This document shows positions 22,291-61,831 of a stretch of DNA of 64,000 nt, in pieces (within the stretch, counting starts at the first letter, position 1; every line of letters starts with the position of its first letter). Under the pieces are notes generated by a model, which saw only the letters and a list, made by a program, of their open reading frames with translations, was not told the DNA's origin and did not search any database. The translations under genes were made by a program, and so were the position numbers. Source of the stretch: Patescibacteria group bacterium (GTDB lineage: Bacteria; Patescibacteriota; Patescibacteriia; 2-01-FULL-39-33); assembly GCA_041662745.1 (NCBI GenBank), contig JBAZRV010000001.1, forward strand, positions 69,837-133,836, read 5' to 3'.

Positions 22291-22296
22291 ATGATT

Positions 22297-23718
22297 TTAT
22301 ATTTTTTTTAATTTAATCATGTCCAGCACTTCGCTCTTATTATAACCCCTAAACAAATAGAGGGCCAAAAAATAAATAATCGCGCCGGCCAGCACTAAAG
22401 TCAAAATATTCTGATTCAATAACGGATATAAACATAAACCCATAACCGCCGAAGCCAGGACGGCTTTCCAAAAAGCCCTTAAACTAATCCTGGTTTTGGT
22501 TTCGCGACGCAAAATATAAAAAGCCGATAAAGTGATGATCGCTTCCGTTGCTACGGTCAGGATTGCCCCAGCCCAATAAGAGAATATGGGAATAAAAATC
22601 AAATAAGCGGCCAAAGAGAACACGGCGTCAAAAAGATAAAAGCTGATCATTTTCTTCTGCAGACCGCAGGCCACAATGGCATAGCCGGCCAAAGCGCCGA
22701 AATAAATCATGGCCGCTCCGACGATCAAAATCCTTAACGGTCCGGCGGCGATAATAAAATCCGCTCCGGCCACAAACCCCATAATTTTTTCCGCTAACAG
22801 CCAAGTGGCTATGACCATGGGTACGGCCAAAATAGCCATAAAATCAAAAGACTTTTGCAGGGTCTTTTCAAACAGCCCTTTGCTGGTCAAATAAAACTCG
22901 GTTAACAGAGGCAAAATCAAACCGAGAAACAAGTAAGGAAACTGAATCAGCGTTTCCAACACCTTATAGGCCGCGCCATAAATGCCGACATCTTCAGCCG
23001 GCCGAACCAAAGATAAAATAATCGTATCGGCGCGAAAATACACCAGGGTCAAAGAAATGGTAATGGCTAACGGCCAGGACACTTCCCATATCTGCCGCCA
23101 AACTTTAAAATCCGCTTCCAATCTCAAACTCAAATGTTTGCGCGCTTTGATTGCCAAATATAAAAAGTTCACCAGACTGCCCAAAGACACGGCGGCAATG
23201 ACAGCCAACAACCCCAAATCGGCGGCAACAGCCAGCCAGACGCCAAGAAGTAAAATAAACCTGCCCCAAACTTCGGCAATGGCCACTTCCGCCATAGCCA
23301 TCTGCTTCTGATATAGGCCGATCAAAACCGATTGCAAAGAAATGAAGAAAAAGGAGAGGGAGGCCACGCCGACACCCAGCTTAACGGCCAACGGATAAGG
23401 TAAAAACCAAATCAGGGCCGAGGCCGTACCCAAAAAAACTACGGCGGAAAGCAGGCGGACAGTCAGGATATTGGCAAAAATCTTATGTTGATTCGCACCG
23501 GGACGAGAAAGCATCTGGGCGGTAGTCATCTGCAGGCCGAAATCAATCAAGACGCCAAAAAACTGCAAAAAAGAAATAACGGTGGTGTAATAACCGAAAC
23601 CTTCACGCCCCAAATAACGCGTCATCAAAGCGATAGTGACCAAACCCAAAACCGTACCGGCGATTTTGCCGCTGATTTGCCAAAAAGTATTCTGCGCGAT
23701 TTTTGCCGCTAAACCCAT
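22297..23718 (-). CDS. polysaccharide biosynthesis protein / oligosaccharide flippase (MOP/Wzx family)
   Basis: 473 aa with about 14 TM helices and an N-terminus typical of Wzx-like flippases. Confidence 0.6.
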   Translation of the reverse strand: MGLAAKIAQNTFWQISGKIAGTVLGLVTIALMTRYLGREGFGYYTTVISFLQFFGVLIDFGLQMTTAQMLSRPGANQHKIFANILTVRLLSAVVFLGTASALIWFLPYPLAVKLGVGVASLSFFFISLQSVLIGLYQKQMAMAEVAIAEVWGRFILLLGVWLAVAADLGLLAVIAAVSLGSLVNFLYLAIKARKHLSLRLEADFKVWRQIWEVSWPLAITISLTLVYFRADTIILSLVRPAEDVGIYGAAYKVLETLIQFPYLFLGLILPLLTEFYLTSKGLFEKTLQKSFDFMAILAVPMVIATWLLAEKIMGFVAGADFIIAAGPLRILIVGAAMIYFGALAGYAIVACGLQKKMISFYLFDAVFSLAAYLIFIPIFSYWAGAILTVATEAIITLSAFYILRRETKTRISLRAFWKAVLASAVMGLCLYPLLNQNILTLVLAGAIIYFLALYLFRGYNKSEVLDMIKLKKI

Positions 23719-35578: not shown

Positions 35579-35740
35579 ACAATCAGCACCTTACGCCGAC
35601 CAGCTTGACTGGTCGGTTTTATTATGCCCAAAATCGCTAAAAGGATAGAAAATAATCACAAAAATTACCTAAATTTAGATAAAAAATTTATAAATAATTA
35701 CTTTAATCCGAGGCTACTTCTATTATTTATGACAAATTAG

Positions 35741-35769
35741 TTGACAAATATTATTTTTTTTGCTAAGAT
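35741..35769 (+). promoter_or_regulatory. sigma70-like promoter (TTGACA, 17-nt spacer, TAAGAT) for the 7-gene operon
   Basis: Consensus -35, about 190 nt upstream of the 35957 start codon, downstream of the 35596 terminator. Confidence 0.4.
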
Positions 35770-35956
35770 AAGCAATCGCTTTAGGCCGATAATTCGGCGT
35801 AAAGGTGCGGACTTTGACAACTTAATAGCTTTAAAAATAAGGAGGAAAAGTGAATTAGGTAACACCAAGATACGCGATGTATTATTGGCGATTAAACCCT
35901 TAAAAACATCAAAGTTGCGCCGCTTAGCGGGTCAGCGACAACAAGGAGCTGTGATC

Positions 35957-37267
35957 ATGGCGACGGAACAAACGGACAGTGGCAACTTTTTGAACAGCAT
36001 GTTGCAGAATCTTGATACTGCCAGCCAAAAATTGGAACAAAGACCGGCAGCGACCAATTTGGGCTTTGACATCAACGCCTTACTTGGCGATATGCGGCAA
36101 GGCCTGGAAACAGCCGTCAAAGACAAGAGACCGATTTTCTCCCTGGACATCAAAAGCCGTTTACAGACGGCCGACTGGGAGCAAGTCCGTGTCAACTTAG
36201 TCAAAGAAAAGATGGATTTGGCCGGCATGATGGCCAATCTCAATATCGTACTGGAAGGGCTGGGGGCCGAGGTGATTCAACTCAAAGAGATGACACCCAA
36301 AGAAAAGGTCTCCCTGGAACAGGCCGGCGAAAGAATCAAAGAAGCCGAGCTTGCTTTGGCCAAGGCGGAAACAAAACGCTTGTTCCGCAAGAGCGCCACT
36401 CTCAAGGCTCAGGCCGGCTTAGCGTCCGCCAAACAACTGGAAGTGGCGACTAAGGAACGCATTAACAGAGCGATGCGTGATCGGATTAATAATGCAACGA
36501 TTGAAGATAGCCTGACAGCCTACAAACTGGCTTGCGACCGGCTCTTAAAAGCCATGCAGGCGCGCGCTCAATCTCAGAAAAAGCAATTGGAGCAAGACAA
36601 GTCGCAGAAACGGCTGGCGTTTGAAACGCACGCGCAAGCGACCGAGGCCTGCGAAAAGATTGAACAACAAATCAATGCGCTCAAGGGCGAGTTGGCCGAA
36701 GCCGAGCAAACCCTAATAACGATGGACAAGTCCGATAAGGGCTTTGCCAAACAGGACCAAAAAACTTCCGATTTGAAACAAACATTGAATGCCTTGCAGG
36801 GCAAGTACAACATTTGCATGGCAATCGCTCAGGAAGCGCAGAACTTTGCGCATCAATTGGATCTTCATGTCCAGACGATTAATGACCTTTTGACCATCAA
36901 CCTCACCTGGCAAGCCATGATCACTAAGCAGGTGGAATACCGCCAAACAACGGTGCGTTCCTGGCTGGAAGCCACCAAGTCCCATCAGGATTTGGCGTCG
37001 GCCGAAGAATTGAACCGAGCCGGTCGCGGAGTTGATGCCAGGAGCATGGCCAGTATGGCGGAAATCAGAGCCGCAGCGCAGAAAGCGCTAGTCAAAGCGC
37101 TTCAAGAGATTCCGGAGTGGCTCAGGCTCTACCATGAAATCATGGCGGCTTCCAACCAACAAGACCGGCAATTTCGCGGTGACGTAGAGGAGCAAATCAA
37201 GCTGTTTCAAAAAAATTACGGTTTTGATCTGAAAAAAGAGTCATTCTTCGGAGATAATGAGAAATAA
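35957..37267 (+). CDS. long coiled-coil hypothetical protein (436 aa), first gene of the unannotated operon
   Basis: Trimmed to the ATG at 35957, which has a CAAGGAG SD. Almost entirely helical, with heptad-like repeats rich in A, E, K, Q and L. Confidence 0.6.
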   Translation: MATEQTDSGNFLNSMLQNLDTASQKLEQRPAATNLGFDINALLGDMRQGLETAVKDKRPIFSLDIKSRLQTADWEQVRVNLVKEKMDLAGMMANLNIVLEGLGAEVIQLKEMTPKEKVSLEQAGERIKEAELALAKAETKRLFRKSATLKAQAGLASAKQLEVATKERINRAMRDRINNATIEDSLTAYKLACDRLLKAMQARAQSQKKQLEQDKSQKRLAFETHAQATEACEKIEQQINALKGELAEAEQTLITMDKSDKGFAKQDQKTSDLKQTLNALQGKYNICMAIAQEAQNFAHQLDLHVQTINDLLTINLTWQAMITKQVEYRQTTVRSWLEATKSHQDLASAEELNRAGRGVDARSMASMAEIRAAAQKALVKALQEIPEWLRLYHEIMAASNQQDRQFRGDVEEQIKLFQKNYGFDLKKESFFGDNEK

Positions 37268-37352
37268 ATAACACACGCAACGGAGGAGATCCTTAATCTT
37301 GGATCTCCTCCTTTTTCTTTCACTACGGCTAATCGCCATGAAAGGAGTTGTT

Positions 37353-38585
37353 ATGGGAGGACTATCATTTTTTGGCCAGGGATTAAGCACGGTTGACATT
37401 ACCCCCTCTGACTTAAGACGATCTGCTGACGAGCTTAACAGATTAGTCGGTGAGGATTTTACCAACGGCGGCAGCATGGATTTTGCTTTGCTGGAGGATA
37501 CCGACGAATACGTCAAATATTTCGCTCAGCAACTCCGGGTAATAAAAATCCTGCTGTCCTGGTGCCATAAAATCGGCAACGATGCCGGCAACCAAACCGG
37601 CATCATTATTGATTTTCTAAAACGTTTTTCTTACACCCTGGAATGCCTGCGGATGAAATACGTCCACAATAACCAGCATCGCCTGCGGGTGGACTTGACC
37701 GAATCCGGCTTCCCCAATTTTATTGAGCCGGATAATTTGAGAATTGATCTTCTGCAACGCGACGAACGATTGGCCAGTTTGCCCGGATCGGATCGCCTGA
37801 AAAAGTCAGCGCTGGAATATATGTTCAGCCATCTGGCCGAAGCCGAGGATATTTTGGCGATTTTGGGCGAACGATCTTATTTTTCCATGCTGACGGAAGA
37901 CAAGTTGTTCCTGCCGTTTACGGCCGGAGAACTGGCAATCTTGAAGTCAGACAACCCTAAAGCGCGTTATTACAGTTTCGCTTGGGCTTGTTTTGACTTT
38001 GCCACTAACCGTCCCTATTTATATCTGATGCATTTTGCATACGATAATGATTGCGAACCGCTGGAAGAACGCGGCCAGAACTGGAAAGAATTCCGGCACA
38101 TCATCACCAATGTCGGCTCGCGGGCTCCCCAGCTCGGCATCCTGGCTTTGGACATTGATGATCGCTTGGCTAACGTTCATCCTAAGGCCGTCAGGCGCAT
38201 CAGTTTGGGCCCGCTATATTCCAAGTTCCTTTGCAATAACCCGTCAGCAACCGCTGACAAGTGGCAGGAGGCTTGGTGTCGGATTATGACGGAATTCAGT
38301 CGGAAGGAAGACGATTTTGTCTTGTTGCTGACCGAAGAAGAAGTCATTTCCGAACGGCAAGAAGTTTATGGCCGACCCCTGCGTCGCAAAGTCCGGGAGA
38401 TCTTTAAAATCAATGAACTCTCTATGGAATGTCTGAACCGGCAAGTTTCCGCAGTCAAGCATTATTGCGTTTTGCCTCATTGTTTGTTGCAACAGGCCGT
38501 CAATGATCCCCAGCTTTGCGAGTTGGGCTTTGCCGGTTTTAAATGCGTAACCTTCAACGGGGAGGATTCAATTAATGGGAGATAA
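37353..38585 (+). CDS. hypothetical protein (410 aa). Its N-terminal FGQGLSTVDITPSDL motif is shared with the 40612 gene.
   Basis: Trimmed to the ATG at 37353 (AAAGGAG SD). The N-terminus aligns with the N-terminus of the 40612..41916 protein. Confidence 0.55.
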   Translation: MGGLSFFGQGLSTVDITPSDLRRSADELNRLVGEDFTNGGSMDFALLEDTDEYVKYFAQQLRVIKILLSWCHKIGNDAGNQTGIIIDFLKRFSYTLECLRMKYVHNNQHRLRVDLTESGFPNFIEPDNLRIDLLQRDERLASLPGSDRLKKSALEYMFSHLAEAEDILAILGERSYFSMLTEDKLFLPFTAGELAILKSDNPKARYYSFAWACFDFATNRPYLYLMHFAYDNDCEPLEERGQNWKEFRHIITNVGSRAPQLGILALDIDDRLANVHPKAVRRISLGPLYSKFLCNNPSATADKWQEAWCRIMTEFSRKEDDFVLLLTEEEVISERQEVYGRPLRRKVREIFKINELSMECLNRQVSAVKHYCVLPHCLLQQAVNDPQLCELGFAGFKCVTFNGEDSINGR

Positions 38586-40527
38586 AAACGGCTCATGCGT
38601 GCCGATTACGGCAGAGCAACTCAAGCCTTTTGATGTTTTTGCCGGCAAATTGATACAAAGCGCCGGTTGGCAACCCAAAAAGCCGCTAACGGCGCCTTCA
38701 GCCGACGGCGGATTAAAATTTAGCGAATCAATGCCGATGGAAGAAAGAATCAATTGGCTGGAACTCATTAAACAGTACAACCCCAACGGAATCATTAATT
38801 CCGCCAACGTCAACCAACTGCTCAATTCCTTGTACACGGGAATCGGCATCGGCTGTTACGTAGTGGAAATGTATGCTAAAAGTTCGGGATTGGCCAAATT
38901 GCTTGATGACAATTCGCGTCAACGGCTGAATGAAGGACAAAAAGCGGAATTTTCCAAAAAGCTGGCAACGGCTGCGGCCGTCGCCCAGTTCAGCTTCGCT
39001 TCCTTCGTCTCTTGGTCATTGTCGCGTTACCAAGGCGAAAAACTTGATTCCCTGTCTATGGATTTTCCCGGTTATCCGGAAATCTGCTTGACTGACTACT
39101 TGCGCGGTTTCAACTGCCTGTTAGTCTACATGGGAAAGTTCGTCAAAGAATCGGGAAAAATCAGAACTGATCTGGATCTTCTGAAGGCCGTCCAAGTGGC
39201 GGCTCAGGGAGCGCTGGACGAAATCAAACTGCGTCGCGACTCGTTGGAATACACCCAATTCTTCACCGATGTGGCGTACAAGCTGGAAGGCGAAGATTTT
39301 ACTATTTCCGGTTTTGAAAACAGATTAAACAACGGCACGATTGGCGTGGAGTTTAAGCGGGTTGACATCAAAACCATTGTCGGCAATCGCGATGCCAAGC
39401 GTTTTTTCCAACGATTGGCTGTACGCGCGGCTTGCTATAAAGTGGCGGAGAGACGCAACGTCATGTACGATTTAGGGGGTATGCCGGCCGCCAGCATCGG
39501 CTTTGGCATTCCCGGTACGGGTAAAACCATGATGATTGGCGCTTTTTCCACGATGCTTTACGATCTCTGTAAGTGGCTGGAATTGCCCTATGTATTTGAT
39601 CCTCATCCTCCCAATATCGTTTCTACCTACCAAGGCGGATCCAGAGAACGGGCCGAGGAGTGGTGGCAACGCATCTTGAATCCCAATAGGATTTCCTTCG
39701 GTCCGGCCGATGATGCTGAAGTTAATTATGAAGACAGGACCCGCCCAGGCGTGTCTGCCGGCGTCCGTGAAGTTATCGGCGCGGCTCTAACCAACCTGGA
39801 AGGGGCCTCAGCTATTTGGCGAGGCAACGCCGTAGTATTTTTTCTAACCAATATCCCCGATCAACTGGATCCGGCTTTGCTGTCGCGCATTGTAACCCGT
39901 TTCAAAATTGATGGGGCTACCACCTGGCAGGATTTCCTGGACCAGGACCACTTATGGTGGAAACGCATTGCCGAAATCGATCCTGCTTTCATTGCCATGG
40001 CCGATCCTGACGATTACGAATACTTGTTTGCTCAACGCCTGATCGGCAGCATGGCCGAGACTTACATAGGCTATCAGCAACCAAGGGAACGGGTCATTCT
40101 GGATATTTTCAACCGCGTGAATAAAGAACGCGACATAAAGGAACAAAAGTTTTTTGCTCAACTCTATCAAGAAATCCAAAAACAATTTCCCAAATTCAGT
40201 TCGCGCGATGTCCGTAATATCCAACGGGCCGTTGACGATCGGTTGTTAGACTTTGATTTTCCTGAGGCCTGGATGTCCGATCCGGAAATATTTTTCCGTC
40301 AGCCTTACGACCGGCAAAAAATCATGGTGTTGGAATTAATGCGAGAGAATATGCAAGGAAAATCGTTCGCGGAAATCAGATTCCAAGAGGCGATGCGCTA
40401 TCTGGACAATATGGTGGCGATTGTTGACCTGGGCCATCGTCGCGAAGTGGAACGAGCAAGCGAACAAATGATGATCCAAGCGGAAGCCAGCCGGGCAATC
40501 CAAAGCCGATTGGAACCGCGCAAATAA
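38575..40527 (+). CDS. classical-clade AAA+ ATPase (650 aa) with an unknown N-terminal domain of about 310 aa and a non-canonical Walker B
   Basis: Walker A GFGIPGTGKT. Second region of homology / sensor-1 FFLTNIPDQLDPALLSRIVTRF, compare FtsH [20 protein letters not shown]. The Walker B position reads ISFGPADDAE rather than hhhhDE. Overlaps the upstream gene by 11 nt, with a GGGGAGGA SD. Confidence 0.75.
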   Translation: MGDKNGSCVPITAEQLKPFDVFAGKLIQSAGWQPKKPLTAPSADGGLKFSESMPMEERINWLELIKQYNPNGIINSANVNQLLNSLYTGIGIGCYVVEMYAKSSGLAKLLDDNSRQRLNEGQKAEFSKKLATAAAVAQFSFASFVSWSLSRYQGEKLDSLSMDFPGYPEICLTDYLRGFNCLLVYMGKFVKESGKIRTDLDLLKAVQVAAQGALDEIKLRRDSLEYTQFFTDVAYKLEGEDFTISGFENRLNNGTIGVEFKRVDIKTIVGNRDAKRFFQRLAVRAACYKVAERRNVMYDLGGMPAASIGFGIPGTGKTMMIGAFSTMLYDLCKWLELPYVFDPHPPNIVSTYQGGSRERAEEWWQRILNPNRISFGPADDAEVNYEDRTRPGVSAGVREVIGAALTNLEGASAIWRGNAVVFFLTNIPDQLDPALLSRIVTRFKIDGATTWQDFLDQDHLWWKRIAEIDPAFIAMADPDDYEYLFAQRLIGSMAETYIGYQQPRERVILDIFNRVNKERDIKEQKFFAQLYQEIQKQFPKFSSRDVRNIQRAVDDRLLDFDFPEAWMSDPEIFFRQPYDRQKIMVLELMRENMQGKSFAEIRFQEAMRYLDNMVAIVDLGHRREVERASEQMMIQAEASRAIQSRLEPRK

Positions 40528-40611
40528 GGCCTCTCCCAATGGAGGGGGTTACGGTAAAAAACCTAACCCCCTCCAAAATGCTGGTGGGGCTAAACTGAGG
40601 AAAGGACGAAG

Positions 40612-41916
40612 ATGGATAAACTACTTGCCGATGCCGGATTATTCGGTCAGGGCTTGACCCTGATAGATACGCCGCAACTTGTAGAAAGATACAACGATTG
40701 CCTTAAACGATTGGGCCTTCCCCCGACTCAACTAACGTCATTTTCCATTGACGGCATCGGTTGGTCGCCGGAAATAGCCCAGGAAACTGGCAATCCGCTG
40801 TATCTGTCGCATGGCGTGGCTAATCAACTGGCGATAATCATTTCGCCCGATCAAGAACATAAGCCGATTTACTTTCCCTTCAGTTCGTTTGATCGTTCGC
40901 TCCTGGCGGAGTTCTTCAAAAAATTCCGTCAAGCTATTACGGATATCACTACGACTTCCGGCATAGCCCTGGATATTGATCAAGAACTGACGTCTTATGA
41001 AACGATCTTGGATTTGCTCTTAGTGGAGAACATCACGGTTATAAGTTATTGCGATAATTTGATCCAGGCGGCTCAACGTCAAAGAGAGCTGACGGAAAGA
41101 TTCCTTGCCCCGGGCGACAACTGGGCCGACAGGGAATTGGCCCGGCAAATTATCGCCAGCGCTCAACAGTATGGCAATTTGCGGTACCGTACGGTAGAAA
41201 TACCGGAATGGCGCTACGATAATCTGGGCTGTTTTTATAGCCGGGCGCTGGACGGCGTGTTTATATTCCGCAATCTGCCCGGCGGCGACTTTATGGTCGT
41301 TGAGAACGGCAAATTGGCCAGAAAGAACCGAGCGACGCAAATTGACATTTTTCAATTGACTGACAAGCGTTTAATAGATCGTTTGGAAGAGGCCGGACTA
41401 ATCGCTGTTGATCTCTCCTGGTATCGGGATCATCCCGAAATTTTGGAAGAAAAACGCGATTGTCTGCTGATTGACATTCTTTCTGCCGCTGATCCCGAAA
41501 TTGATTATCTGCATTTGACTGAACCGCAAAAAAAATCGCGCTTAAGAAATCTCGGTGTCAAGCTTCCCAAAATTTACAAGGATCTGGAACGGCTGATCAA
41601 ACGATTGGGGCAGGATGAGGTTGAAAGTTTTAATGAACTATCAGATGAACTTAAACTTTTGCTCCTGCAACCGCACCCGGATCTGGAAGAAGAAATGTGG
41701 GAATTGGTCGGCATGCTGATTGCGCGCTTGCAACCCTGGCGGTTGCTTATCACGTTTATCTGCGATAAGAATCTGTTCTATAAACGCTATGATGACTGGC
41801 CGAAAGGAAAACGGCTTTGGGCCATCGCTACGTTGAAAGAACATTACCGGCCCAAAATGAATATTCTAAGAGAACGAGCCGCTGAAGCAGAATCAACTGA
41901 AGACCTGCAAAAATAA
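40612..41916 (+). CDS. hypothetical protein (434 aa), N-terminal paralog of the 37353 gene (shared FGQGLTLIDTPQL motif)
   Basis: GAAAGGA SD. The N-terminal motif is shared with the 37353 protein. Confidence 0.55.
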   Translation: MDKLLADAGLFGQGLTLIDTPQLVERYNDCLKRLGLPPTQLTSFSIDGIGWSPEIAQETGNPLYLSHGVANQLAIIISPDQEHKPIYFPFSSFDRSLLAEFFKKFRQAITDITTTSGIALDIDQELTSYETILDLLLVENITVISYCDNLIQAAQRQRELTERFLAPGDNWADRELARQIIASAQQYGNLRYRTVEIPEWRYDNLGCFYSRALDGVFIFRNLPGGDFMVVENGKLARKNRATQIDIFQLTDKRLIDRLEEAGLIAVDLSWYRDHPEILEEKRDCLLIDILSAADPEIDYLHLTEPQKKSRLRNLGVKLPKIYKDLERLIKRLGQDEVESFNELSDELKLLLLQPHPDLEEEMWELVGMLIARLQPWRLLITFICDKNLFYKRYDDWPKGKRLWAIATLKEHYRPKMNILRERAAEAESTEDLQK

Positions 41917-41962
41917 ATTTTAATCGCTATCACCCTGAAACCGCAAAACAAGGAGGACAATC

Positions 41963-42754
41963 ATGCTGATTTTCTTATCTTACGCTCTGTTGTTTACCGC
42001 TCTCGGAATTTTTTGGTTCGGCATTGACAAATACTTCGGAGTAGTCGTCTTCTCTTTCGTTTACAACCTAACCCACAGCAAGCGTTTGCCGGCCGATCGG
42101 GTTTCCGGTTTCATCTTGGGCCGCAAAGCGCGAGGACGATTCTACTCGGCTTTGCTTCTGGGTTTCGTCAATTGGCGGTCATGCCTCTACTTTATGACGC
42201 ATGGCCCCGTAGTCAACTCTTTCCTCTTGCTACTGGCTGTCGTTTTTACGATGGTCGGCTTCTATTGCGGTCCTATGGTCATGCGACTGTTGGGCAGACG
42301 CGACCAACTGCTTAAACATCTGGACGTAATTGACCAGATTGAAGCCGGAGAAATCCAAGTCGGCGATGAAGCCAAAAAGAAGGCCAAAAGCTGGTGGAAA
42401 AATTTAAAGGGCGGTTTAGCTGATTGGAAAAGCGCTCTCAGGGATGCGATCAACGCAACCAAAAATCCGGAACAAGCCGCGGTTATTGACACGGCTCCCG
42501 CGGAAACGGAAGAGATGCCGGCAACGGCAGCGACCGAGCTATCCGCCCTGCAACAAGAACTTGCCGGTGTACAGGCCAGCATTAATCTTATGGGCGAGCA
42601 GGCCAAAACCGCTCCATCAAACAGTAATGGCGATGAGGCGATTCAACCACCAAATGAAAACCATTTGAAAAAAGCGAAAGCCTGTCTGGAAAAATTTTCC
42701 CGAGGCGAGGATCCCGGCCTGGGGGCGTCCGATTCCGACCTCAAAAATGAATAG
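41963..42754 (+). CDS. hypothetical membrane protein (263 aa; about 3 TM helices plus a coiled-coil / disordered C-terminus)
   Basis: AAGGAGG SD. Hydrophobic N-terminal half and a helical, polar C-terminal half. Confidence 0.5.
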   Translation: MLIFLSYALLFTALGIFWFGIDKYFGVVVFSFVYNLTHSKRLPADRVSGFILGRKARGRFYSALLLGFVNWRSCLYFMTHGPVVNSFLLLLAVVFTMVGFYCGPMVMRLLGRRDQLLKHLDVIDQIEAGEIQVGDEAKKKAKSWWKNLKGGLADWKSALRDAINATKNPEQAAVIDTAPAETEEMPATAATELSALQQELAGVQASINLMGEQAKTAPSNSNGDEAIQPPNENHLKKAKACLEKFSRGEDPGLGASDSDLKNE

Positions 42755-42762
42755 GAGAAGGC

Positions 42763-44388
42763 ATGATGAGTGAAAAACAAGATAAGGGCGGTCGGCTATA
42801 CTGGCTGTTCAAACACAGCGCCGGCTGGGCGCTGAATTTTGCCAAACGCCACTGGCTGATTTTTACCATCCTCCTGTTGGCAACTTGTCTGGAACTGTTT
42901 ATCGCCCGAGGTTATGTGTACGGGTATATTATCACTGTCAGGAAATTCTTCGGTTCTTTTTTGGCAATAATTTCAGCCCTAGGCGTTTTCCGTTGGCTAT
43001 ACCGCAAATACCGTTGGCGCGGAAAACTATTGCTGGTAATCTTCTATTTGCTTGTTAGTTATGGCATTTATGAAGTCGGCAAACCGATTCATCATTACTT
43101 TGCGCAGTTTTACTGCTACAAAATAACTGATTTCGTAGAGCTGGATCAATTGCCGGAAACGGCCCATGAGCGGATCTTGCCGCTCAACTCCGTTTTCTCG
43201 CAAGCGCGGGAATTGGTGCAGGACAATGTCCAACCGGCCGAACCCCACTTCGTACGAATTGACGACCAATACCGTTTCACTATGGGCATTGAACCCACTC
43301 CGCTTCTGCCCCGTATTTTTTCCGGAATCCGTCAAGTTTATAATATTGACGGCGCCTCCCCGTCGCCTGATTGGGGTTTGCAAAATCTGGTTGATGTCAG
43401 ATTTGAAACCGGAGAAGGACTTAAGTGGAGCAGGAACACTTACATTGCCACCAGTCGCGCCTTCGGATTGTGGCGCTATTTCAACTATGAGCCGGACGGC
43501 GTTATCTACCTTAAAGACGACTCCGGAAAAATGGTGCAAGCGGTGCCACTGATCCGTTGGAAAGGGTTATTGTTTCCCCGGCCAACTTTTGGCGGCGTGC
43601 AAGTAATTGAACAATCGCCGGACGGCATCTGGCAAAGCCTCAGGCGAGTCCTGTTCGGCTGCGGTTATTATGTCTCGCCGGCCAAAATGAAAAACTATCC
43701 GTTCTTAAACGGACAGAACGTTCTATCTTACAAGGTGTCTCGTTATGTCGCTGAAAGCTTCAAATTCCATAAAGGGCTTTCTGCTCCTCTGCCTTGGATC
43801 CATCGAGGCGATGTCAGAATCGCCAATATGCCCGAGGATATGAACGACCAACCATTCACTATCTTTTTCCGTCTGGGACAACTTGGCGGTAAAGATGCTC
43901 TTTATCACTACTTCTCACTTCAACCCTACTCGGAAAAATCGCAAGGGTTATCCGTTTCCCTGTTCGTGCCGGCTGATGGCCTGGGAAAAATATTTATCTT
44001 CTCTCATCACCAGAAAGAACCGATGCTGGGAGTGACCGCCGTAACCAATAAAGTCATCGGCGATCATAAGTTTTTTGACTGGACAATCAATCGGCCGGTT
44101 GAACAACGGCCCTACATCACCAAAGTAAACGGCAAGATCCGCTTTTACTGGCTGACGACCGTCGTTACCCTGGACAATAAGGACGCCAAACATTATATTG
44201 CCGGCAGTCGTCCCGACGTAATCTTGACCGACGCGGCCAATCAATGCGTTTATTGGATGGAGTCAGCTGACTCCAGTGCTTGGAAAAAGCAACTGGAAGC
44301 GAATGTCAGTTTCAAGCCAGTTATGGGAGGACCGCCTCAAGCAGAAAAAGTGGAACCGGCGACGATCCAGCCGATTTCCGCAGAATAA
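42763..44388 (+). CDS. hypothetical membrane protein (541 aa; N-terminal TM bundle plus a large soluble domain)
   Basis: AGGAGAAGG SD. 3-4 N-terminal TM helices, then an aromatic-rich globular domain. Confidence 0.55.
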   Translation: MMSEKQDKGGRLYWLFKHSAGWALNFAKRHWLIFTILLLATCLELFIARGYVYGYIITVRKFFGSFLAIISALGVFRWLYRKYRWRGKLLLVIFYLLVSYGIYEVGKPIHHYFAQFYCYKITDFVELDQLPETAHERILPLNSVFSQARELVQDNVQPAEPHFVRIDDQYRFTMGIEPTPLLPRIFSGIRQVYNIDGASPSPDWGLQNLVDVRFETGEGLKWSRNTYIATSRAFGLWRYFNYEPDGVIYLKDDSGKMVQAVPLIRWKGLLFPRPTFGGVQVIEQSPDGIWQSLRRVLFGCGYYVSPAKMKNYPFLNGQNVLSYKVSRYVAESFKFHKGLSAPLPWIHRGDVRIANMPEDMNDQPFTIFFRLGQLGGKDALYHYFSLQPYSEKSQGLSVSLFVPADGLGKIFIFSHHQKEPMLGVTAVTNKVIGDHKFFDWTINRPVEQRPYITKVNGKIRFYWLTTVVTLDNKDAKHYIAGSRPDVILTDAANQCVYWMESADSSAWKKQLEANVSFKPVMGGPPQAEKVEPATIQPISAE

Positions 44389-44678: not shown

Positions 44679-44710
44679 CCGTTCCGACGTTTTCGTCGGA
44701 ACGGTTTTAT
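44679..44710 (+). terminator. intrinsic terminator (CCGTTCCGACG-TTTT-CGTCGGAACGG plus T-tract)
   Basis: Perfect 11-bp stem with a T-tract, ending the seven-gene operon. Confidence 0.6.
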
Positions 44711-50001: not shown

Positions 50002-50072
50002 CGGGGTGGAGTATGTCGGTAGTACGCGCCCATGGGGTGGGTGTAGACGGGGTTCAATTCCCCGCACCCCGA
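50002..50072 (+). tRNA. tRNA-Pro(GGG), intact, no encoded CCA
   Basis: CGGGGTGGAGTATGTCGGTAGTACGCGCCCATGGGGTGGGTGTAGACGGGGTTCAATTCCCCGCACCCCGA. Anticodon loop ATGGGGT (U33, G37). All stems pair. Confidence 0.8.
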
Positions 50073-50177: not shown

Positions 50178-53100
50178 TTAATCTTTTAAGTTAGGATTGT
50201 ATCTAAATAAAGCTTCTCGGCCGTCTTTATAACCATCGCCGTCACTGTCGGCATTAGCCGGTTGAGTATTATAGATGTTAGTCTCATCGCTATCGGCCAG
50301 ACCATCTTTATCGCTATCAATAAAACCGGCATCGTTCCTGATATAATCATTCTCAAAGCTTGATTGGATAATGATTAATCGGTTCTTCCATTTTTCCCCA
50401 AAAATATCAGCTGCTTCCTGCTCGCTAATATATTTCAAATTATTATTGCCAAAAACCATGTAAACTCTGGGACTATTATCAAAACTAATCAAGTTTGATC
50501 CGGGATTAGCCCTAACATGATCCCCTTCGGTTAACGCATCAAAGGTTGCTTGGTTGATTACTTCTACTTTTTGTTGCGCCCAAGCGCCGGTATGCCAAGT
50601 CCAATAAGTCGCCTCGTTAACATATAAATGCCTTTTATTATCGTCAGTCACATGATAAACAGCTGGATTGTTTGCTACTTTTATCATTCTGCCGGCAGTA
50701 TAAATTCCCTTCCCAACCGTTGAAGCCGTCGAACTGCTTTCAATAATTGAACTGCCACACGGCTGGCTCTCGGCCGGCCTCGTGCTGTTTTGTTTACAGC
50801 CGTGACTATCGGTGCAGGTTCTAATCTGCGTACCATTAGAACAAGCCATCCAAGCCGTGCAACCCCACTTAGGCGTACAGGCTGAAGCGCAGGTTTGAGA
50901 AAGCGCCGGCCTATTGGCAACCGTACCGCAACTGCTTGAATCGGCGCATGTTCTGGTTTGATTATTGCCGGAACAAGCAGACCAAGAGCCACAAGTCCAA
51001 TTTTCCGTACAATCCGATCCGCTTGAAGCGCAGGTTTGAGAAAGTGCCGGTCTGTTGGCAACCGTACCGCAACCATTACTGTCAGTGCAGGTCCTGATCT
51101 GGCTATTATTAGAACAAGCAGACCAAGAACCACAAGTCCAATTTTCCGTGCAACCGGAAGCTGTCGTTGGTTTGATTTTAATTGCAATATCCTTTGAGAA
51201 ACTGGGTATTGATCCGGTTAATACTCCGCCGACGGTCTGAACCTGCCCCTCGCTAATCAAACCGCCCGTTCCCCAAGTATTATAATATTGTATTTTGTAA
51301 GTACCGGCGCTAAGGCCGGGTAAAGTGAAAGTAGTATTGCTTATAACTCCATTGTTTTCTAATCCATACTGACTCCCGATATCATAAACCCATAAGTAAG
51401 CGGAATTATTTCCAACTAAACTGATATTTTGCAAAATATGAGAATTAAAAGCAACTGAAGTGGGACAGCTGAAAGAATAATCTTTGATATAAAACCAATC
51501 GCGGCCGGTATTTTTAACCTGGATTGTGTGTGTTCCGGCCGGGATAGAAGCCTCCAATTCCAGATTTGAGGCTCCGGCGGCCGGCGCCAATGAGGCAGCC
51601 ACCACCCCATCAACCAAAATCTCCATGCTGCTCGGCAAATAAGCGTAATTGGAAACAGAGGGAATAATAAGCTTGATAGTTGCCGGCGCATCAAAATTTG
51701 TATGAAAAATTGGATCGGAACGAAGGCTTTCTTGGATTGTTCCATGGAGATTAACGGTCATTTTTTCAAAATCTTCTATTTGCCCGTACTGATCAACATT
51801 AAATATTCGCTGTTGAGGCACATCATAAAAATTAATAAGGCCGGGAAGATTAGAACGAACAACAGTCTCTCTGGCCATCGTTTGAGTGGTTACCTGCACC
51901 TCAGTATTTATAAGGCCCTCATCGCCCCAAGTCTCGCCGTCCATAAAAAGGAATGGCGGTTTGAAAAGTTGATATAACCTTAAACTGCCACCGACATAAG
52001 AGGCGTACCAAATATGGGCTGATGATTTTAAAAACAACGATTCCCATATAATATTATGAAGATGCAATCCTTCCGCTAATTGCGAACGATACGGTTCGGA
52101 GAAGGAAGAATAAGTGAGTTCCGGCGCGTCATCGTCAGCTCCTAAACCAAATTCACCCGTAAAAATCGGCTTGCCATACTGACGAAGTTTTTCTGTTGAT
52201 GATTTAAGATAAGCGAAAATATCAGTGGTATAGGAATGAAGCTGTATTATATCCATATTGGACAACGACCAAAACGGTGTTTCGTTGGCTTCAGTGTATC
52301 CGGCCTCAACGCTGGTAGTAATGGGGTGGTCAAAAGGATCAAGCTCCTTGATAAACCGCGCCATCTCCTCATGCCAAGCAACGATAGCGTTTCGGTTGCT
52401 GGCGGCTCCGCTGGAATACATCACCTCATTAAATAATTCCCAACTTTGGACGGACGTGGAATAACCCCAGCGGGCAATAATATAACGATATTTATTTTTG
52501 GTTAGACGAATTGCTTCTGCGTCGGTAAAAAATTGTTGCGGGTTGGTCAGCCAACCGCCATAATCTGAATTAGCGCTGTTATAAGGATTATTGCGCCACT
52601 CGTCATAATTAAGAAATTGCTGAAAATATTGCAAAACAAGCTGAATGGCAACACCATTTTGTTCGGCAAGCTCAATAACCCTGTCTAATCGCCAAGAAAT
52701 TTCAAGGCCGTATTGACCAACGCCATGATAATAGGGCGGCGGGCTGGTAATATTTTTGGGAGTCCATTCAATATTTTCTCCGGTATTATAACTGCTCATC
52801 CAAACTCTTTCCCAAGTAACGCCATTATCATGCATTTTTTGAAAATGAGCTGTCCACCAGGCTAGGCCGGTATTGTTACCGGCGCAAATTTGATTATAGC
52901 CAATAGGGGCAAATTGTTCTCCTGTTGTCCGTCGCAACAAAGAATGATCGCGTGAATCTATGCGGATAAAACCCTTTTTTGCCGAGGAGACGCATTGAAA
53001 ACTATTGGCGCCTGGAATAGTCTGGGTGCCAATGCTGTCAGTCACACTAATGGTATAACTATGCGTGCCGAATTGGGTGGGAGCAAAACGAGCTTTCCAA

Positions 53101-53534
53101 GAAGGATTACGGCCATTGCCATAACGTTCGGGATTGCCGGCTGTAATATCATATTCCATATAATAAAAAGCAGGGACAACCTTACTTGTTCCATCCGGTT
53201 GGATAAAAGTCACATCCACCTTTATCTGGTCGGCATCAAAAGGATTTTTATAAGTCGCGGTCTCAGAAGGATTTGAATAATTTCCTTCCAAAGTAAAGGT
53301 TAATTCAAATTTTTCATATTGGCCGATACTGTTTGAGTTTTGGGATTGGGAAATAACCGGATTATCACCCGTCAATGCTTGAGCCACATTAATCTGTCTT
53401 GCTAGGCCAAACCCAAAAAACATTAAAATTAAAGTAATAAATAAAAAAACAGCTGGCCATAAAAACTTGGCTATAGCTGTTTCAATTTTGTTACGACCGT
53501 TTAATTTCTTTATTTTCCGTGAAAATAAAGCCAT
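50178..53534 (-). CDS. large secreted/anchored multidomain protein: GH5-like (clan GH-A) catalytic domain, three Cys-rich 40-aa repeats, and C-terminal TSP type-3-like calcium-binding Asp repeats
   Basis: N-terminal signal anchor. ELFNEV (acid/base NE) and IFTGEFG (nucleophile GEF) motifs of GH5. Three repeats of CTENWTCGSWSACS..QIRTCTDS.GCGTVANRPALSQTCAS. C-terminal DSDKDGLADSDE...DSDGDGYKDG. Confidence 0.6.
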   Translation of the reverse strand: MALFSRKIKKLNGRNKIETAIAKFLWPAVFLFITLILMFFGFGLARQINVAQALTGDNPVISQSQNSNSIGQYEKFELTFTLEGNYSNPSETATYKNPFDADQIKVDVTFIQPDGTSKVVPAFYYMEYDITAGNPERYGNGRNPSWKARFAPTQFGTHSYTISVTDSIGTQTIPGANSFQCVSSAKKGFIRIDSRDHSLLRRTTGEQFAPIGYNQICAGNNTGLAWWTAHFQKMHDNGVTWERVWMSSYNTGENIEWTPKNITSPPPYYHGVGQYGLEISWRLDRVIELAEQNGVAIQLVLQYFQQFLNYDEWRNNPYNSANSDYGGWLTNPQQFFTDAEAIRLTKNKYRYIIARWGYSTSVQSWELFNEVMYSSGAASNRNAIVAWHEEMARFIKELDPFDHPITTSVEAGYTEANETPFWSLSNMDIIQLHSYTTDIFAYLKSSTEKLRQYGKPIFTGEFGLGADDDAPELTYSSFSEPYRSQLAEGLHLHNIIWESLFLKSSAHIWYASYVGGSLRLYQLFKPPFLFMDGETWGDEGLINTEVQVTTQTMARETVVRSNLPGLINFYDVPQQRIFNVDQYGQIEDFEKMTVNLHGTIQESLRSDPIFHTNFDAPATIKLIIPSVSNYAYLPSSMEILVDGVVAASLAPAAGASNLELEASIPAGTHTIQVKNTGRDWFYIKDYSFSCPTSVAFNSHILQNISLVGNNSAYLWVYDIGSQYGLENNGVISNTTFTLPGLSAGTYKIQYYNTWGTGGLISEGQVQTVGGVLTGSIPSFSKDIAIKIKPTTASGCTENWTCGSWSACSNNSQIRTCTDSNGCGTVANRPALSQTCASSGSDCTENWTCGSWSACSGNNQTRTCADSSSCGTVANRPALSQTCASACTPKWGCTAWMACSNGTQIRTCTDSHGCKQNSTRPAESQPCGSSIIESSSTASTVGKGIYTAGRMIKVANNPAVYHVTDDNKRHLYVNEATYWTWHTGAWAQQKVEVINQATFDALTEGDHVRANPGSNLISFDNSPRVYMVFGNNNLKYISEQEAADIFGEKWKNRLIIIQSSFENDYIRNDAGFIDSDKDGLADSDETNIYNTQPANADSDGDGYKDGREALFRYNPNLKD

Positions 53535-58593: not shown

Positions 58594-58728
58594 ATTCTTT
58601 GTTTAATAATAAACCGATAACACTTTCACAAATTCCAGCAAAAGCGGAATAACTGCGAAGTAAGTTATCAAGGTTCATGGGTTTTTCTACCCTTCACCTG
58701 TGTATAATTATAGCAAATCAAAACAAAC

Positions 58729-58758
58729 TTGTCAAGAGGATGAAAAATCAAGTATAAT
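58729..58758 (+). promoter_or_regulatory. sigma70-like promoter (TTGTCA, 18-nt spacer, TATAAT)
   Basis: Near-consensus elements 47 nt upstream of the ATG at 58805. The track ORF start at 58700 lies inside this promoter. Confidence 0.45.
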
Positions 58759-58804
58759 AACAATAAGAAAGACAAAAAACTATCTCTTACACTACACATC
58801 ATAT

Positions 58805-61800
58805 ATGACTGATACTTTAGGACCATCACTGGAAGACCTTATGACGGGAGAGGCAACCGAAGAAGAATCGGCCGGAGAAAAACTCCAACAGAAATTGACG
58901 CAAATAAAAATCAAGGAAAAAGAGGACGAGGTGGCGAAAAACGCCGACGCCTTGGGTTTGCCTTATATTAATTTAGTCGGTTTCCCTATTTCTCCCGACG
59001 CGCTAAGCTCTATTGCTGAAGCAGCGGCCAAAGCCGCTCAAGCGATTTGTTTTTTCAATAACGGTTCGGAGTTGCGCGTCGGTTGCGTAAATTATAATGA
59101 TGAAGTCAAAAAAATAGTGGCTGACTTGCAAGAAAAATTCCACGCCAATGTCCTGCCTTATCTTATTTCCCAACACAGTTTTGAACGCTCGGCTAAATTA
59201 TATGACTCTCTGCCTAAAATCACCCGACTGGTGGGCGGAGTGGAAATAAAAAAAGAAGATATTGAGCGTTTTGAAAAAGAAATAACCACTTTCAAAGATT
59301 TAAATGAAAAAATAAATAAAGTTAGCATCACTGACGTAGTGGCGATTATTTTGGCAGCCGGCCTTAAGGCCGAAGCTTCGGATGTCCATATTGAAGCCGA
59401 GGAGAAAGGCATCATAGTGCGCTTGCGCGTGGATGGCGTTTTGCATGATTCGGCCATGATTGAAAAAGATAAATGGAAAAAAATAATTGCTCGCCTTAAA
59501 GTTTTGGCGCGAGTCAAAATCAATATTGATGACAAGCCCCAAGACGGCCGTTTCACTATTTTTTTAGAAGATGACGCCGTGGATGTCAGAACATCCTTCC
59601 TGCCGACTAATTTTGGCGAGAGCGTGGTTATGCGTTTACTGCATTCCCAGTCAGTCGCCCTGTCTTTTGAACAGCTGGGTTTATTGCCGGCGGCCTTTAA
59701 AACATTGGAGGCGGAAATTAAAAAACCCAACGGCTTAATCTTGACTGCCGGCCCTACCGGCTCGGGTAAAACCACTACCCTGTATGCAATTCTCAATAAA
59801 CTCAATCATCCGGACGTAAAAATCATCACTTTGGAAGATCCGATTGAATATCGCCTTAAGGGCATTAACCAATCACAGGTAGACCCCAAGAAAGATTATA
59901 CTTTTGCCAAGGGCTTGCGTTCTATTTTGCGCCAAGATCCGGATATTGTAATGGTTGGCGAAATTCGCGACAATGAGACGGCTGATATCGCCACTCAAGC
60001 GGCCCTGACCGGCCACCTGGTGCTTTCTACCGTCCATACCAACGATGCGGCCGGCGTGATCCCGCGCTTAATGGATATGGGCATTAAACCCTTCTTTATT
60101 GTTCCGTCCATTAACGCCGTTATCGGCCAACGCTTGGTGCGTAAACTTTGCGAGAAATGCAAACAACCGCATCAAATTACAGAAGAGGAAAAAACCACCA
60201 TAGAGAAGATTTTGGCGACCATCTCGCCCAAATCGGGCATTGATGTTCCGGCCAACCTGCCCCAAATGTACGAACCCGGTCCGGGTTGCGAGACTTGTGG
60301 CGGCATCGGCTATAAGGGCCGCATCGGCATCTATGAAATTTTCACCATGACCGACAATATCAAAACCTTGACTATGGCCGGAGCGGCGGCTTTTGAAATT
60401 CTCAAACAAGCGATTGAAAACGGCATGATTACCATGTTGCAAGACGGCATCATTAAATCTTTAAACGGCGTTACTGATGTGCAAGAAGTTTTCCGCGTTA
60501 TCGGCAAATTGGATTATGTGGAAGAACTTTATGATATTGTCATTACTCAAACAATCGGCCGTGGCATCAGTTTGACTGCCAAAGAATTAATAAAAGGCGA
60601 GGAACTATCCAAAAACTTAAAACAAATCCAAGAAAGCTTAGAAAATCTGCCCGCCAAAGAATTAACGGCTCTATTAATGGCTGCAGCGCTTAAAGCGGAT
60701 GCCGGCGATATTCATATTGAACCGACCGATACCGGCGTTAAGGTGCGCTTCAGAATTGATGGCATCTTATATGATATGGCTACGCTGGATAAAAGCCAAT
60801 ACCTGCCGGTTTTATCCAATATGAAAATTTTAGCCGGCATGCCCACCAATATTAAAAAGGCGGCTTGGGACGGACGGTTCGGCATCTTTACGCCACAAGC
60901 TAAATTGGATTGTCGCATTTCCATTATCTCCGGCGGTTACGGTGAAACAATCGTTATCCGTATTTTATCGGCGCAAGCCGCCAGCCTGAGAGTTGAGGAT
61001 TTGGGTATGCGCGAGTATTCTTTAAGGTTGCTGCAAGGGTCAATGGAAAAGACTAAGGGTATTATTGTCACTACCGGGCCGACGGGCTCGGGCAAAACCA
61101 CTACCCTGTATGCCCTGCTTAATCAACTTAACAAACCGGACACCAAGATTATTACCATAGAAGATCCGATTGAGTATCATTTGGCCGGCGTAATGCAGAC
61201 GCAAATTGATGAGGCTCAAGGCTACACTTTTGCCGCGGCCATGCGTTCCTTGTTGCGTCAAAATCCCAACATCATGATGATCGGAGAAATCCGCGATAGC
61301 GAGACGGCTAAAACAGCGATTGAAGCGGCTTTGACCGGCCACTTAGTCTTATCCACCATCCACACCAATTCCGCGGCCGGCGCCTTCCCGCGTTTCTTGG
61401 GGTTAGGCATTGAACCTCATATTTTAGCCAACTCCTTAGAGTGCACTATTGGCCAACGTTTAGTCAGAAAAATCTGTCCTTATTGCAAACAGCCGGTTGA
61501 GCTTAATCCGGAGATTGCTGGGGAGGTGGAAAAAATAATCAAAAGCATCAATACCAAATCGGGAGCCAAAATACCTGATAAACCGACTTATTTCAAAGCG
61601 GTTGGTTGCGAAAAATGCGGCGGTTTGGGTTACAAAGGACGTTTAGGCATCTATGAAGTCATACCGAATACCGCTGAAATGCAAAAAGTGGTGCAAGGAC
61701 CGGCGGTTACCAATTTGGAAATTGAAGCCTTAGCCGTTAAAGAAGGGGTAGTTCTAATGCTGCAGGACGGTATCCTAAAGGCTATGGCCGGAGAAACAAC

Positions 61801-61831
61801 AGTGGAAGAAGTATTCCGAGTAGCCAAATAG
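58805..61831 (+). CDS. fused tandem GspE/PilB-type secretion/pilus ATPase (two complete N-domain plus ATPase-core modules in one 1008-aa protein)
   Basis: Two Walker A boxes TAGPTGSGKTTTLYA / TTGPTGSGKTTTLYA. Two Asp-box/Walker B regions (IVMVGEIRD / IMMIGEIRD). Two His boxes (LVLSTVHTN / LVLSTIHTN). Two tetracysteine motifs (CEKCKQP...CETCGG / CPYCKQP...CEKCGG). Confidence 0.8.
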   Translation: MTDTLGPSLEDLMTGEATEEESAGEKLQQKLTQIKIKEKEDEVAKNADALGLPYINLVGFPISPDALSSIAEAAAKAAQAICFFNNGSELRVGCVNYNDEVKKIVADLQEKFHANVLPYLISQHSFERSAKLYDSLPKITRLVGGVEIKKEDIERFEKEITTFKDLNEKINKVSITDVVAIILAAGLKAEASDVHIEAEEKGIIVRLRVDGVLHDSAMIEKDKWKKIIARLKVLARVKINIDDKPQDGRFTIFLEDDAVDVRTSFLPTNFGESVVMRLLHSQSVALSFEQLGLLPAAFKTLEAEIKKPNGLILTAGPTGSGKTTTLYAILNKLNHPDVKIITLEDPIEYRLKGINQSQVDPKKDYTFAKGLRSILRQDPDIVMVGEIRDNETADIATQAALTGHLVLSTVHTNDAAGVIPRLMDMGIKPFFIVPSINAVIGQRLVRKLCEKCKQPHQITEEEKTTIEKILATISPKSGIDVPANLPQMYEPGPGCETCGGIGYKGRIGIYEIFTMTDNIKTLTMAGAAAFEILKQAIENGMITMLQDGIIKSLNGVTDVQEVFRVIGKLDYVEELYDIVITQTIGRGISLTAKELIKGEELSKNLKQIQESLENLPAKELTALLMAAALKADAGDIHIEPTDTGVKVRFRIDGILYDMATLDKSQYLPVLSNMKILAGMPTNIKKAAWDGRFGIFTPQAKLDCRISIISGGYGETIVIRILSAQAASLRVEDLGMREYSLRLLQGSMEKTKGIIVTTGPTGSGKTTTLYALLNQLNKPDTKIITIEDPIEYHLAGVMQTQIDEAQGYTFAAAMRSLLRQNPNIMMIGEIRDSETAKTAIEAALTGHLVLSTIHTNSAAGAFPRFLGLGIEPHILANSLECTIGQRLVRKICPYCKQPVELNPEIAGEVEKIIKSINTKSGAKIPDKPTYFKAVGCEKCGGLGYKGRLGIYEVIPNTAEMQKVVQGPAVTNLEIEALAVKEGVVLMLQDGILKAMAGETTVEEVFRVAK

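Follow-up and report, generated by a model that had tools for sequence, protein, structure and literature searches.

A classical-clade AAA ATPase with an Asp-Asp Walker B motif is encoded in a conserved gene cassette of a Patescibacteria contig

The window analysed here is a 64,000-nucleotide stretch of a contig from a Patescibacteria group bacterium (JBAZRV010000001.1, positions 69,837 to 133,836 of the forward strand; GenBank assembly GCA_041662745.1), and all coordinates refer to it. Six co-directional genes lie in this window, flanked by terminator-like hairpins at 35595-35617 and 44679-44704, the latter a strong one. In order, they encode a coiled-coil protein, a soluble protein of ~410 amino acids (aa), an AAA ATPase, a DUF6638 protein, a small membrane protein and a larger membrane protein, TM541. 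The AAA ATPase is the subject of this report. Its open reading frame (ORF) was confirmed in the window and its product is 100% identical to a protein deposited from a metagenome-assembled genome as an AAA family ATPase of a Patescibacteria group bacterium. The start of the gene overlaps the stop of the 410-aa partner gene by 11 nt, and its ATG is preceded by an internal GGGAGGA site.

The protein consists of a mostly helical N-terminal domain of ~300 aa, one AAA module of the classical clade (~aa 270-560) and a long C-terminal helix (aa 598-649). The Pfam family PF00004 was matched at aa 310-445 with 26.2 bits (gathering score 21.2, E-value 1.2e-5), covering profile positions 4-129 of 131. An AlphaFold2 model had a mean predicted local distance difference test (pLDDT) score of 85, and its alpha/beta and lid fold was nearest to classical-clade members; the nearest folds were all translocating unfoldases. 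By fold and by sequence, the protein belongs to the classical clade. A first-pass annotation, made from the DNA letters and their translations, had described an N-terminal domain that belongs to no recognisable family, and scans of Pfam and NCBIfam likewise gave no family match within the first 300 residues. Neither this domain nor the C-terminal helix matched a known cofactor-binding or substrate-binding domain. Family scans, hydropathy and fold comparison revealed no MIT domain, double-psi barrel, transmembrane (TM) segment or protease domain, and the NCBIfam scan of the whole protein returned only sub-threshold matches to Cdc48 and CdvC.

Conservation was assessed in three sets of relatives. 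A search of 5.8 billion proteins yielded 391 relatives of ~650 aa, of which 36, down to 37% identity, were aligned. A scan of one genome per species provided the 80 best genomic loci. When 1.84 billion cluster representatives were searched exhaustively with a profile, a wider superfamily of 164 clusters emerged (50% identity, E up to 1e-30), and motifs were counted in the 94 of its representatives that span the Walker B region. The Walker A motif and the second region of homology (SRH) had been reported as intact in the first-pass annotation, and both readings held. In the P-loop, G311, P313, G314, T315, G316 and K317 were invariant in the 36 homologs, and GxPGTGK[ST] was present in all 80 loci. 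The SRH stretch, VVFFLTNIPDQLDPALLSRIVTRF, aligned to Cdc48, Rpt4 and FtsH. Within it, T425, N426, P428, D432, A434, S437 and R438 were invariant and R442 was conserved in at least 90% of the homologs ('ALLSRxxxRF'), while TNxP[DE]xxDxAxxSR was found in 80 of 80 loci. The invariant T425-N426 aligned to the TN...DPAL of the three reference proteins, placing a polar residue at sensor-1. Pore loop 1 was equally constant in the form ST[FY]QGGS: S350, T351, Q353, G354 and G355 were invariant, position 352 was F or Y in 36 of 36 homologs, and HMMER aligned the loop to 'SMWYGES' of Cdc48 and 'DKYIGES' of Rpt4. The working parts of the ATPase outside Walker B are under strong purifying selection.

The first-pass annotation had differed from the present analysis at Walker B. 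It had aligned the protein to FtsH by eye, read the Asp-Glu dyad as replaced by Pro-Ala, and proposed either a hydrolysis-deficient regulatory AAA or a shifted acidic pair, ADDAE, as the catalytic residues, with the caveat that the alignment could be offset. The same register was reproduced by pairwise phmmer against PDB sequences, which set 'risfgpaddaevn' ungapped on 'aiifideidsiap' of the first AAA domain (D1) of Cdc48. Alignments that used a profile of the family gave a different register. The best-scoring of these, to Rpt4 (24 bits), opened a two-residue gap, pairing 'kiiyapiDDaE' with 'CIIF--MDEVD', and the second AAA domain (D2) of Cdc48 was aligned likewise, with Asp-Asp on Asp-Glu. 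hhalign of the family to the AAA module of Escherichia coli FtsH paired 'ISFGPADDAE' with 'IIFI--DEID' at 92.7% probability. Profile HMMER and hhalign thus agreed in placing D379-D380 on the canonical Asp-Glu and E382 on the second Asp of DExD.

The pattern of conservation supported the profile register. D379, D380 and E382 were invariant in 36 of 36 homologs (local consensus KIIFAPIDDAEN), and DDxE was kept in all 80 genomic orthologs. About 89 of the 94 superfamily representatives had Asp-Asp: 57 as DDxE, 29 as DDxD and one as DDxN, to which P0157 (IDDGE) and P0250 (IDDID) were added after being missed by the pattern scan. The remainder comprised one Asp-Glu at the same two positions (P0188, LTYMPMDEAE), one Glu-Asp, one Asp-Gln (P0252) and two apparently frameshifted sequences. 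Distant members had an all-hydrophobic strand before the pair (LAIVLFDDID, LMLVFFDDVD, LHLVILDDID), a textbook hhhhhhDD[IV]D, and relatives from Vibrio and Sinorhizobium with 26% identity read GFGTIDD[IV]D. In the AlphaFold2 model, where pLDDT at Walker B was ~92, a strand at 373-375 and a bridge at 378 precede the pair and a short helix follows at 381-384, an order that is consistent with Asp-Asp at the C-terminal end of beta-3. Because the conservation within the family, the profile alignments and the hhhhhhDD[IV]D form of the superfamily overturn the pairwise register, we read the Walker B motif as intact, with Pro-Ala as small residues inside the beta-3 strand. The apparent loss of the acidic dyad is an artefact of alignment register. 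The hydrophobic strand that ends in an acidic pair, as expected of the PF00004 clade, was found in an Asp-Asp variant, and the true deviations, on this alignment, are the Asp in place of Glu at the catalytic position and the [AG][PT] within beta-3. Of the two first-pass proposals, the shifted acidic pair is the one favoured by the two independent profile alignments, the distant relatives and the one Asp-Glu member. The suspicion of an offset was also borne out: the HMM alignment places the acidic pair elsewhere, as Asp-Asp rather than Asp-Glu.

A further motif was found in the lid, where F541, S543, R544, D545, R547, N548 and Q550 were invariant and the family form was F-[ST]-S-R-D-[VLI]-R-N-I-Q. 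In the relatives from Vibrio and Sinorhizobium, this place is occupied by F[ST]GR. When the lid alone was compared by hhalign, the best local match was the 'FSGADLANLV' of FtsH, a weak one (E 0.01, probability 4%), in which R544 fell opposite Ala. R544 may tentatively be placed at the sensor-2 position, where the classical clade has Ala. If this weak alignment is correct, the absence of a sensor-2 arginine, a hallmark of the classical clade, would not apply to this protein.

Table 1. Features of the AAA ATPase gene, its motifs and the surrounding cassette (window coordinates).
Feature	Position	Strand	Basis or remark
Coiled-coil protein, ~436 aa, first gene	35957..37267	+	mechanical ORF starts at TTG 35741
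Soluble partner, ~410 aa, second gene	37353..38585	+	no family; no fold match among solved structures
AAA ATPase gene, 650 aa	38575..40527	+	third of six cassette genes
DUF6638 protein, 434 aa, fourth gene	40612..41916	+	PF20343, E 4.4e-40
Small multi-pass membrane protein, 263 aa, hydrophilic tail, fifth gene	41963..42754	+	hydropathy segments
Membrane protein, 541 aa (TM541), sixth gene	42763..44388	+	N-terminal TM helices, C-terminal domain of ~430 aa
Promoter-like site, TTGACA-17-TAAGAT with TG	35741..35769	+	upstream of cassette; consensus scan only
Terminator-like hairpin, 11-bp stem and T run	37282..37311	+	consensus scan; just after the coiled-coil stop (37267), before the 410-aa gene
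Terminator-like hairpin, 11-bp stem (8 GC pairs) and T run	44679..44704	+	consensus scan; after the last cassette gene
Walker A / P-loop, GIPGTGKT (G311-T318)	39505..39528	+	sequence, conservation
Pore loop 1, STYQGGS (S350-S356), aromatic F/Y	39622..39642	+	conservation, HMMER alignment
Walker B, ISFGPADDAE (I373-E382)	39691..39720	+	acidic pair D379-D380; beta-3 has small residues G-P-A; E382 matches second Asp of classical DExD
Beta-4, sensor-1 (T425-N426) and SRH, VVFFLTNIPDQLDPALLSRIVTRF	39832..39903	+	R438 and R442 are candidate arginine fingers
Lid motif, FSSRDVRNIQ (F541-Q550)	40195..40224	+	R544 opposite Ala of classical 'FSGAD' (sensor-2 position, tentative)

The partner proteins gave few matches to known families. 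Four of the five had no Pfam family, even when nine orthologs from each of three families were scanned, and sequence-profile searches of the PDB with all partners returned no relatives. TM541 had neither Pfam nor PDB relatives; by the positive-inside rule, its ~430-aa C-terminal domain is probably extracytoplasmic. The coiled-coil protein showed only weak, sporadic matches of coiled-coil type (HBL, SipB, keratin). An identity as a PspA, Snf7 or TelA protein was unsupported, since none of these Pfam families was matched in nine members at E up to 1. Neither the 410-aa partner and DUF6638 as paralogs nor TM541 as a divergent DUF2333 was upheld (hhalign probabilities 1.8% and 1.1%, respectively). 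The two proteins that flank the ATPase share an N-terminal 'FGQGL..D.P' (BLASTP E 0.004), which was considered as a recognition tag and rejected: orthologs of the 410-aa partner begin further in and do not have it, and it is conserved in DUF6638 only. The 'FFGQGL' near the start of the window's 410-aa protein is missing from its orthologs, and DUF6638 orthologs (loci L001-L083) carry a conserved 'G[LF][FY]GxGL...[LV]VxRYNxCL' in their first ~30 residues. The literature searched contained no mention of DUF6638 and nothing relevant on DUF2333.

Candidate regulatory sites came from a consensus scan. The number of promoter-like sites in the region was not far above the shuffled expectation. The hairpin that follows the coiled-coil gene may be an internal attenuator that raises the level of the coiled-coil protein over that of the downstream proteins. 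Beyond the hairpin that closes the cassette, the genes lie on the opposite strand and are not conserved neighbours.

The cassette is widespread. Relatives occur in at least 515 species; among the hosts identified by name are Patescibacteria, Trueperaceae, Desulfonema magnum, a gammaproteobacterial metagenome-assembled genome, Opitutaceae, Verrucomicrobiales, Chitinophagales, Saprospiraceae and many Flavobacteriaceae isolates. When the window genes were compared by tblastn with the 80 best loci, the 410-aa partner and DUF6638 were each found in 78 and TM541 in 72, with gene order kept. This synteny extends over Patescibacteria, Deinococcota, Desulfobacterota, Gammaproteobacteria, Verrucomicrobiota and Bacteroidota. 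The coiled-coil protein, which is divergent, was matched in 33 of the 80 and the small TM protein in 14, again in order; a gene of similar size occupies the fifth slot in other loci beyond the tblastn matches. Genes outside 35741-44388 were found in none or one of the 80. TM541 was 81% identical in one locus (L001), and the Mesoflavibacter and gammaproteobacterial orthologs had the same gene layout in unrelated housekeeping flanks. The ATPase is 45% identical to its Trueperaceae relative versus ~40% to those of other Patescibacteria. Such identities do not follow taxonomy, which suggests horizontal spread. Flavobacteriaceae cassettes carry an additional ~218-aa gene with three predicted TM helices between the ATPase and DUF6638 genes (e.g. 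Mesoflavibacter, L081, 11966..12622).

A core of the cassette was also recognised at greater distance. The order coiled-coil protein, ~400-aa partner, ~650-aa Asp-Asp AAA and DUF6638 is present in the window, in Vibrio and in Sinorhizobium. By hhalign, the coiled-coil, partner and DUF6638 proteins matched their Vibrio and Sinorhizobium counterparts at 97-100% probability; the values for the coiled-coil protein and DUF6638 were 97.5% and 100% against the Sinorhizobium neighbours and 97.1% and 99.7% against those of Vibrio. In Sinorhizobium meliloti Ak57 (L086, 10824..12569), a gene with an endonuclease domain and an ISRm16 transposase split the ATPase from DUF6638.

The invariance of the Walker A Lys, the sensor-1 Asn, the SRH arginines and the aromatic pore loop favours an active translocating motor and argues against a hydrolysis-dead regulator. 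We consider it likely that the protein is a catalytically competent, single-ring ATPase of the classical clade with an intact, non-standard Walker B motif, which would serve as the motor of the cassette, most likely as a hexameric ATP-driven translocase or remodeller that probably acts on a partner at the membrane's cytoplasmic face. In such an enzyme, K317, T318 and D379 would handle Mg-ATP, with D379 coordinating Mg2+, and the catalytic carboxylate would be supplied by D380, perhaps with assistance from E382. The Walker B pattern, a beta-3 strand of hh[FY][AG][PT]h followed by Asp-Asp and x-Glu, would be equivalent to the classical hhhhDE-x-D. N426 would act as sensor-1, R438 and R442 would act in trans between subunits, and the hexameric ring would thread a partner polypeptide through the pore loops at [FY]352. 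Three features point to a stoichiometric complex at the cytoplasmic membrane face: translational coupling to the gene of the 410-aa protein, conservation of the coiled-coil protein, whose gene is followed by an internal hairpin, and the membrane proteins. There the ATPase would probably remodel or disassemble one of its cassette partners.

Several observations weigh against an active motor of this kind. Pairwise HMMER and the Cdc48 D1 profile alignment, which at 10.5 bits is the weakest of the profile set, stay ungapped. The placement of Asp-Asp in the structure comes from the secondary-structure string and the sequence alignment. The equivalence of R438 to an arginine finger is one residue off, as hhalign sets S437 opposite the first FtsH Arg and the alignments end at 436-437. 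In other P-loop ATPases, a change from Glu to Asp usually slows hydrolysis; as Asp is shorter than Glu, hydrolysis here may be slow or dependent on a partner. Finally, the folds of the partners gave no functional clue that points to a substrate.

A broader proposal, which we put forward tentatively, is that the ATPase drives an undescribed and widespread machine in which a four-gene core is combined with interchangeable membrane modules. Its role would be remodelling at the cytoplasmic membrane, powered by ATP, in functional analogy to Vps4/ESCRT-III or NSF/SNARE. The libraries and papers that were searched contained no comparable system of a single-ring classical AAA with partners of this kind.

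The protein might instead be a nucleotide-dependent switch rather than a processive motor, which we regard as unlikely. DnaA, an initiator-clade protein without a pore loop, carries a Walker B of the form hhhhDD and works as a DNA-bound switch. A DnaA-like switch with an Asp-Asp Walker B would bind ATP, hydrolyse it slowly when triggered by a partner and set the assembly or timing of the cassette complex. The catalytic position is Asp rather than Glu in ~95% of the representatives examined, and the three conserved soluble partners encoded alongside could be activators, both as such a switch would predict. However, an aromatic pore loop that is invariant across phyla and nearest folds that are all translocating unfoldases are hard to explain without threading, and the natural member with Asp-Glu suggests that the position behaves as an ordinary catalytic carboxylate.

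The patchy, phylum-crossing spread of the cassette, with identities out of step with taxonomy, would also suit a mobile anti-phage defence system, with the AAA as its sensor or motor and the membrane proteins, which vary, as abortive-infection effectors. Its occurrence in unrelated flanks and the exchange of the membrane module by lineage (the 263-aa protein and TM541, DUF2333, or none) fit this idea as well. On the other side, none of the six cassette proteins matched PADLOC-DB 2.0 at E up to 0.1, the flanks are housekeeping genes rather than defence islands, and no relatives were found in phage records or IMG/VR contigs. All ten matches in the plasmid collection were very large, non-mobilizable replicons, and the cassette is present in many Flavobacteriaceae genera. 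We therefore judge a role in defence to be improbable. The first-pass proposal of an ATP-binding, hydrolysis-dead regulatory AAA whose Walker B has lost Asp-Glu fits the ungapped phmmer and Cdc48 D1 alignments and is very improbable, because the higher-scoring profile alignments and hhalign put Asp-Asp on Asp-Glu, because no variation is seen at the pair, at E382, at the Asn of sensor-1 or at the Arg of the SRH, and because distant relatives read hhhhhhDD[IV]D or, in one case, Asp-Glu. Degenerate AAA domains, moreover, normally lose several motifs together, and here none is lost.

The motif question itself is an ordinary one, and the interest of the locus is moderate and lies mainly in the widespread, uncharacterised cassette. 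The case serves as a caution, in that an intact Walker B seemed dead in a pairwise register and was recognised as intact only from evidence on the whole family. The Asp-Asp lineage, apparently with a sensor-2 arginine, is large, with at least 164 clusters when grouped at 50% identity and members in at least 515 species. It bears on how strict the rule of a catalytic Glu is and on where the lineage branches within AAA+; a literature search on non-canonical Walker B motifs among bacterial AAA ATPases of the classical clade brought up nothing relevant. Members of the lineage are firmly tied to a conserved cassette that also encodes membrane proteins and three soluble partners, one of which has no detectable fold relative in the PDB. 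As the cassette occurs in cultivable organisms (Flavobacteriaceae, Vibrio and Sinorhizobium meliloti), its function is genetically testable.

Three other features of the window were recorded. A 1043-aa ORF with a GTG start (58700..61831, plus strand) matched PF00437 T2SSE, a PilB/GspE-type secretion ATPase, with 757 bits in two stretches, the better at aa 209-599. A second P-loop region lies at ~aa 784-830, and the ORF appears to encode a PilB-like ATPase that arose by fusion or duplication or that has an insertion. The segment 18001..20000 has a GC content of 0.345, against ~0.45 in the rest of the window, and lies just upstream of polysaccharide-synthesis genes (Wzy_C, Polysacc_synt; 20995-23718, minus strand). 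The sole family match of an 1118-aa ORF (50178..53534, minus strand) was DUF5060, near its N-terminus, and tRNA-Pro genes at 50002 and 53698 flank it.

With the classical-clade unfoldases (Cdc48/p97, Rpt/PAN, FtsH/Yme1, Vps4 and Msp1), the protein shares the GxPGTGK[ST] P-loop, an acidic pair that ends beta-3 and is followed by x-[DE], an aromatic pore loop 1, the sensor-1 Asn in 'TN.P..[LI]D.A' and, as candidate arginine fingers, the SRH arginines. It differs from them in having Asp-Asp rather than Asp-Glu, [AG][PT] at two and three residues before the pair, and a pore loop of [FY]-Q-G, whereas the classical loop is aromatic-hydrophobic-Gly. Against Cdc48/p97 (TIGR01243), the score was 17.5 bits for a cut-off of 802.65, and the protein has one AAA module, not two. 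Against Vps4/CdvC (NF041006), it was 12.9 bits for a cut-off of 650, and Pfam gave no MIT match. Unlike FtsH, the protein has no hydrophobic segment and no Peptidase_M41 match. DnaA likewise has Asp-Asp in place of Asp-Glu at the end of the AAA+ Walker B strand, but it is of the initiator clade and the present protein of the classical clade.

In gene arrangement, the cassette resembles Vps4/CdvC with ESCRT-III and the bacterial PspA/Snf7-AAA+ associations (PMC11237479), in which a single-ring classical AAA gene likewise stands beside genes for coiled-coil and membrane proteins. Disassembly of a polymer at the membrane, as by Vps4 and ESCRT-III, is a plausible analogue for what the cassette might do. 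The present coiled-coil partner differs from those associations in having no PspA_IM30 or Snf7 match in the nine members scanned. Three kinds of AAA+ architecture are listed in PMC11237479: Vps4-like with TPR/6TM, double-AAA, and a fusion of an AAA with a coiled coil and a beta-propeller; none of them corresponds to the cassette described here. The DUF6638 neighbourhoods of Vibrio vulnificus and Sinorhizobium meliloti have a homologous four-gene core and the same Asp-Asp Walker B, and the annotation of their proteins goes no further than 'hypothetical protein', 'ATP-binding protein' and 'DUF6638 family protein'. Their AAA proteins are ~26% identical to the one described here and have DDxD, whereas DDxE is found in the window. 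The membrane module also differs: it is DUF2333 in Sinorhizobium, none is adjacent in Vibrio, and in the window it consists of the 263-aa and 541-aa proteins.

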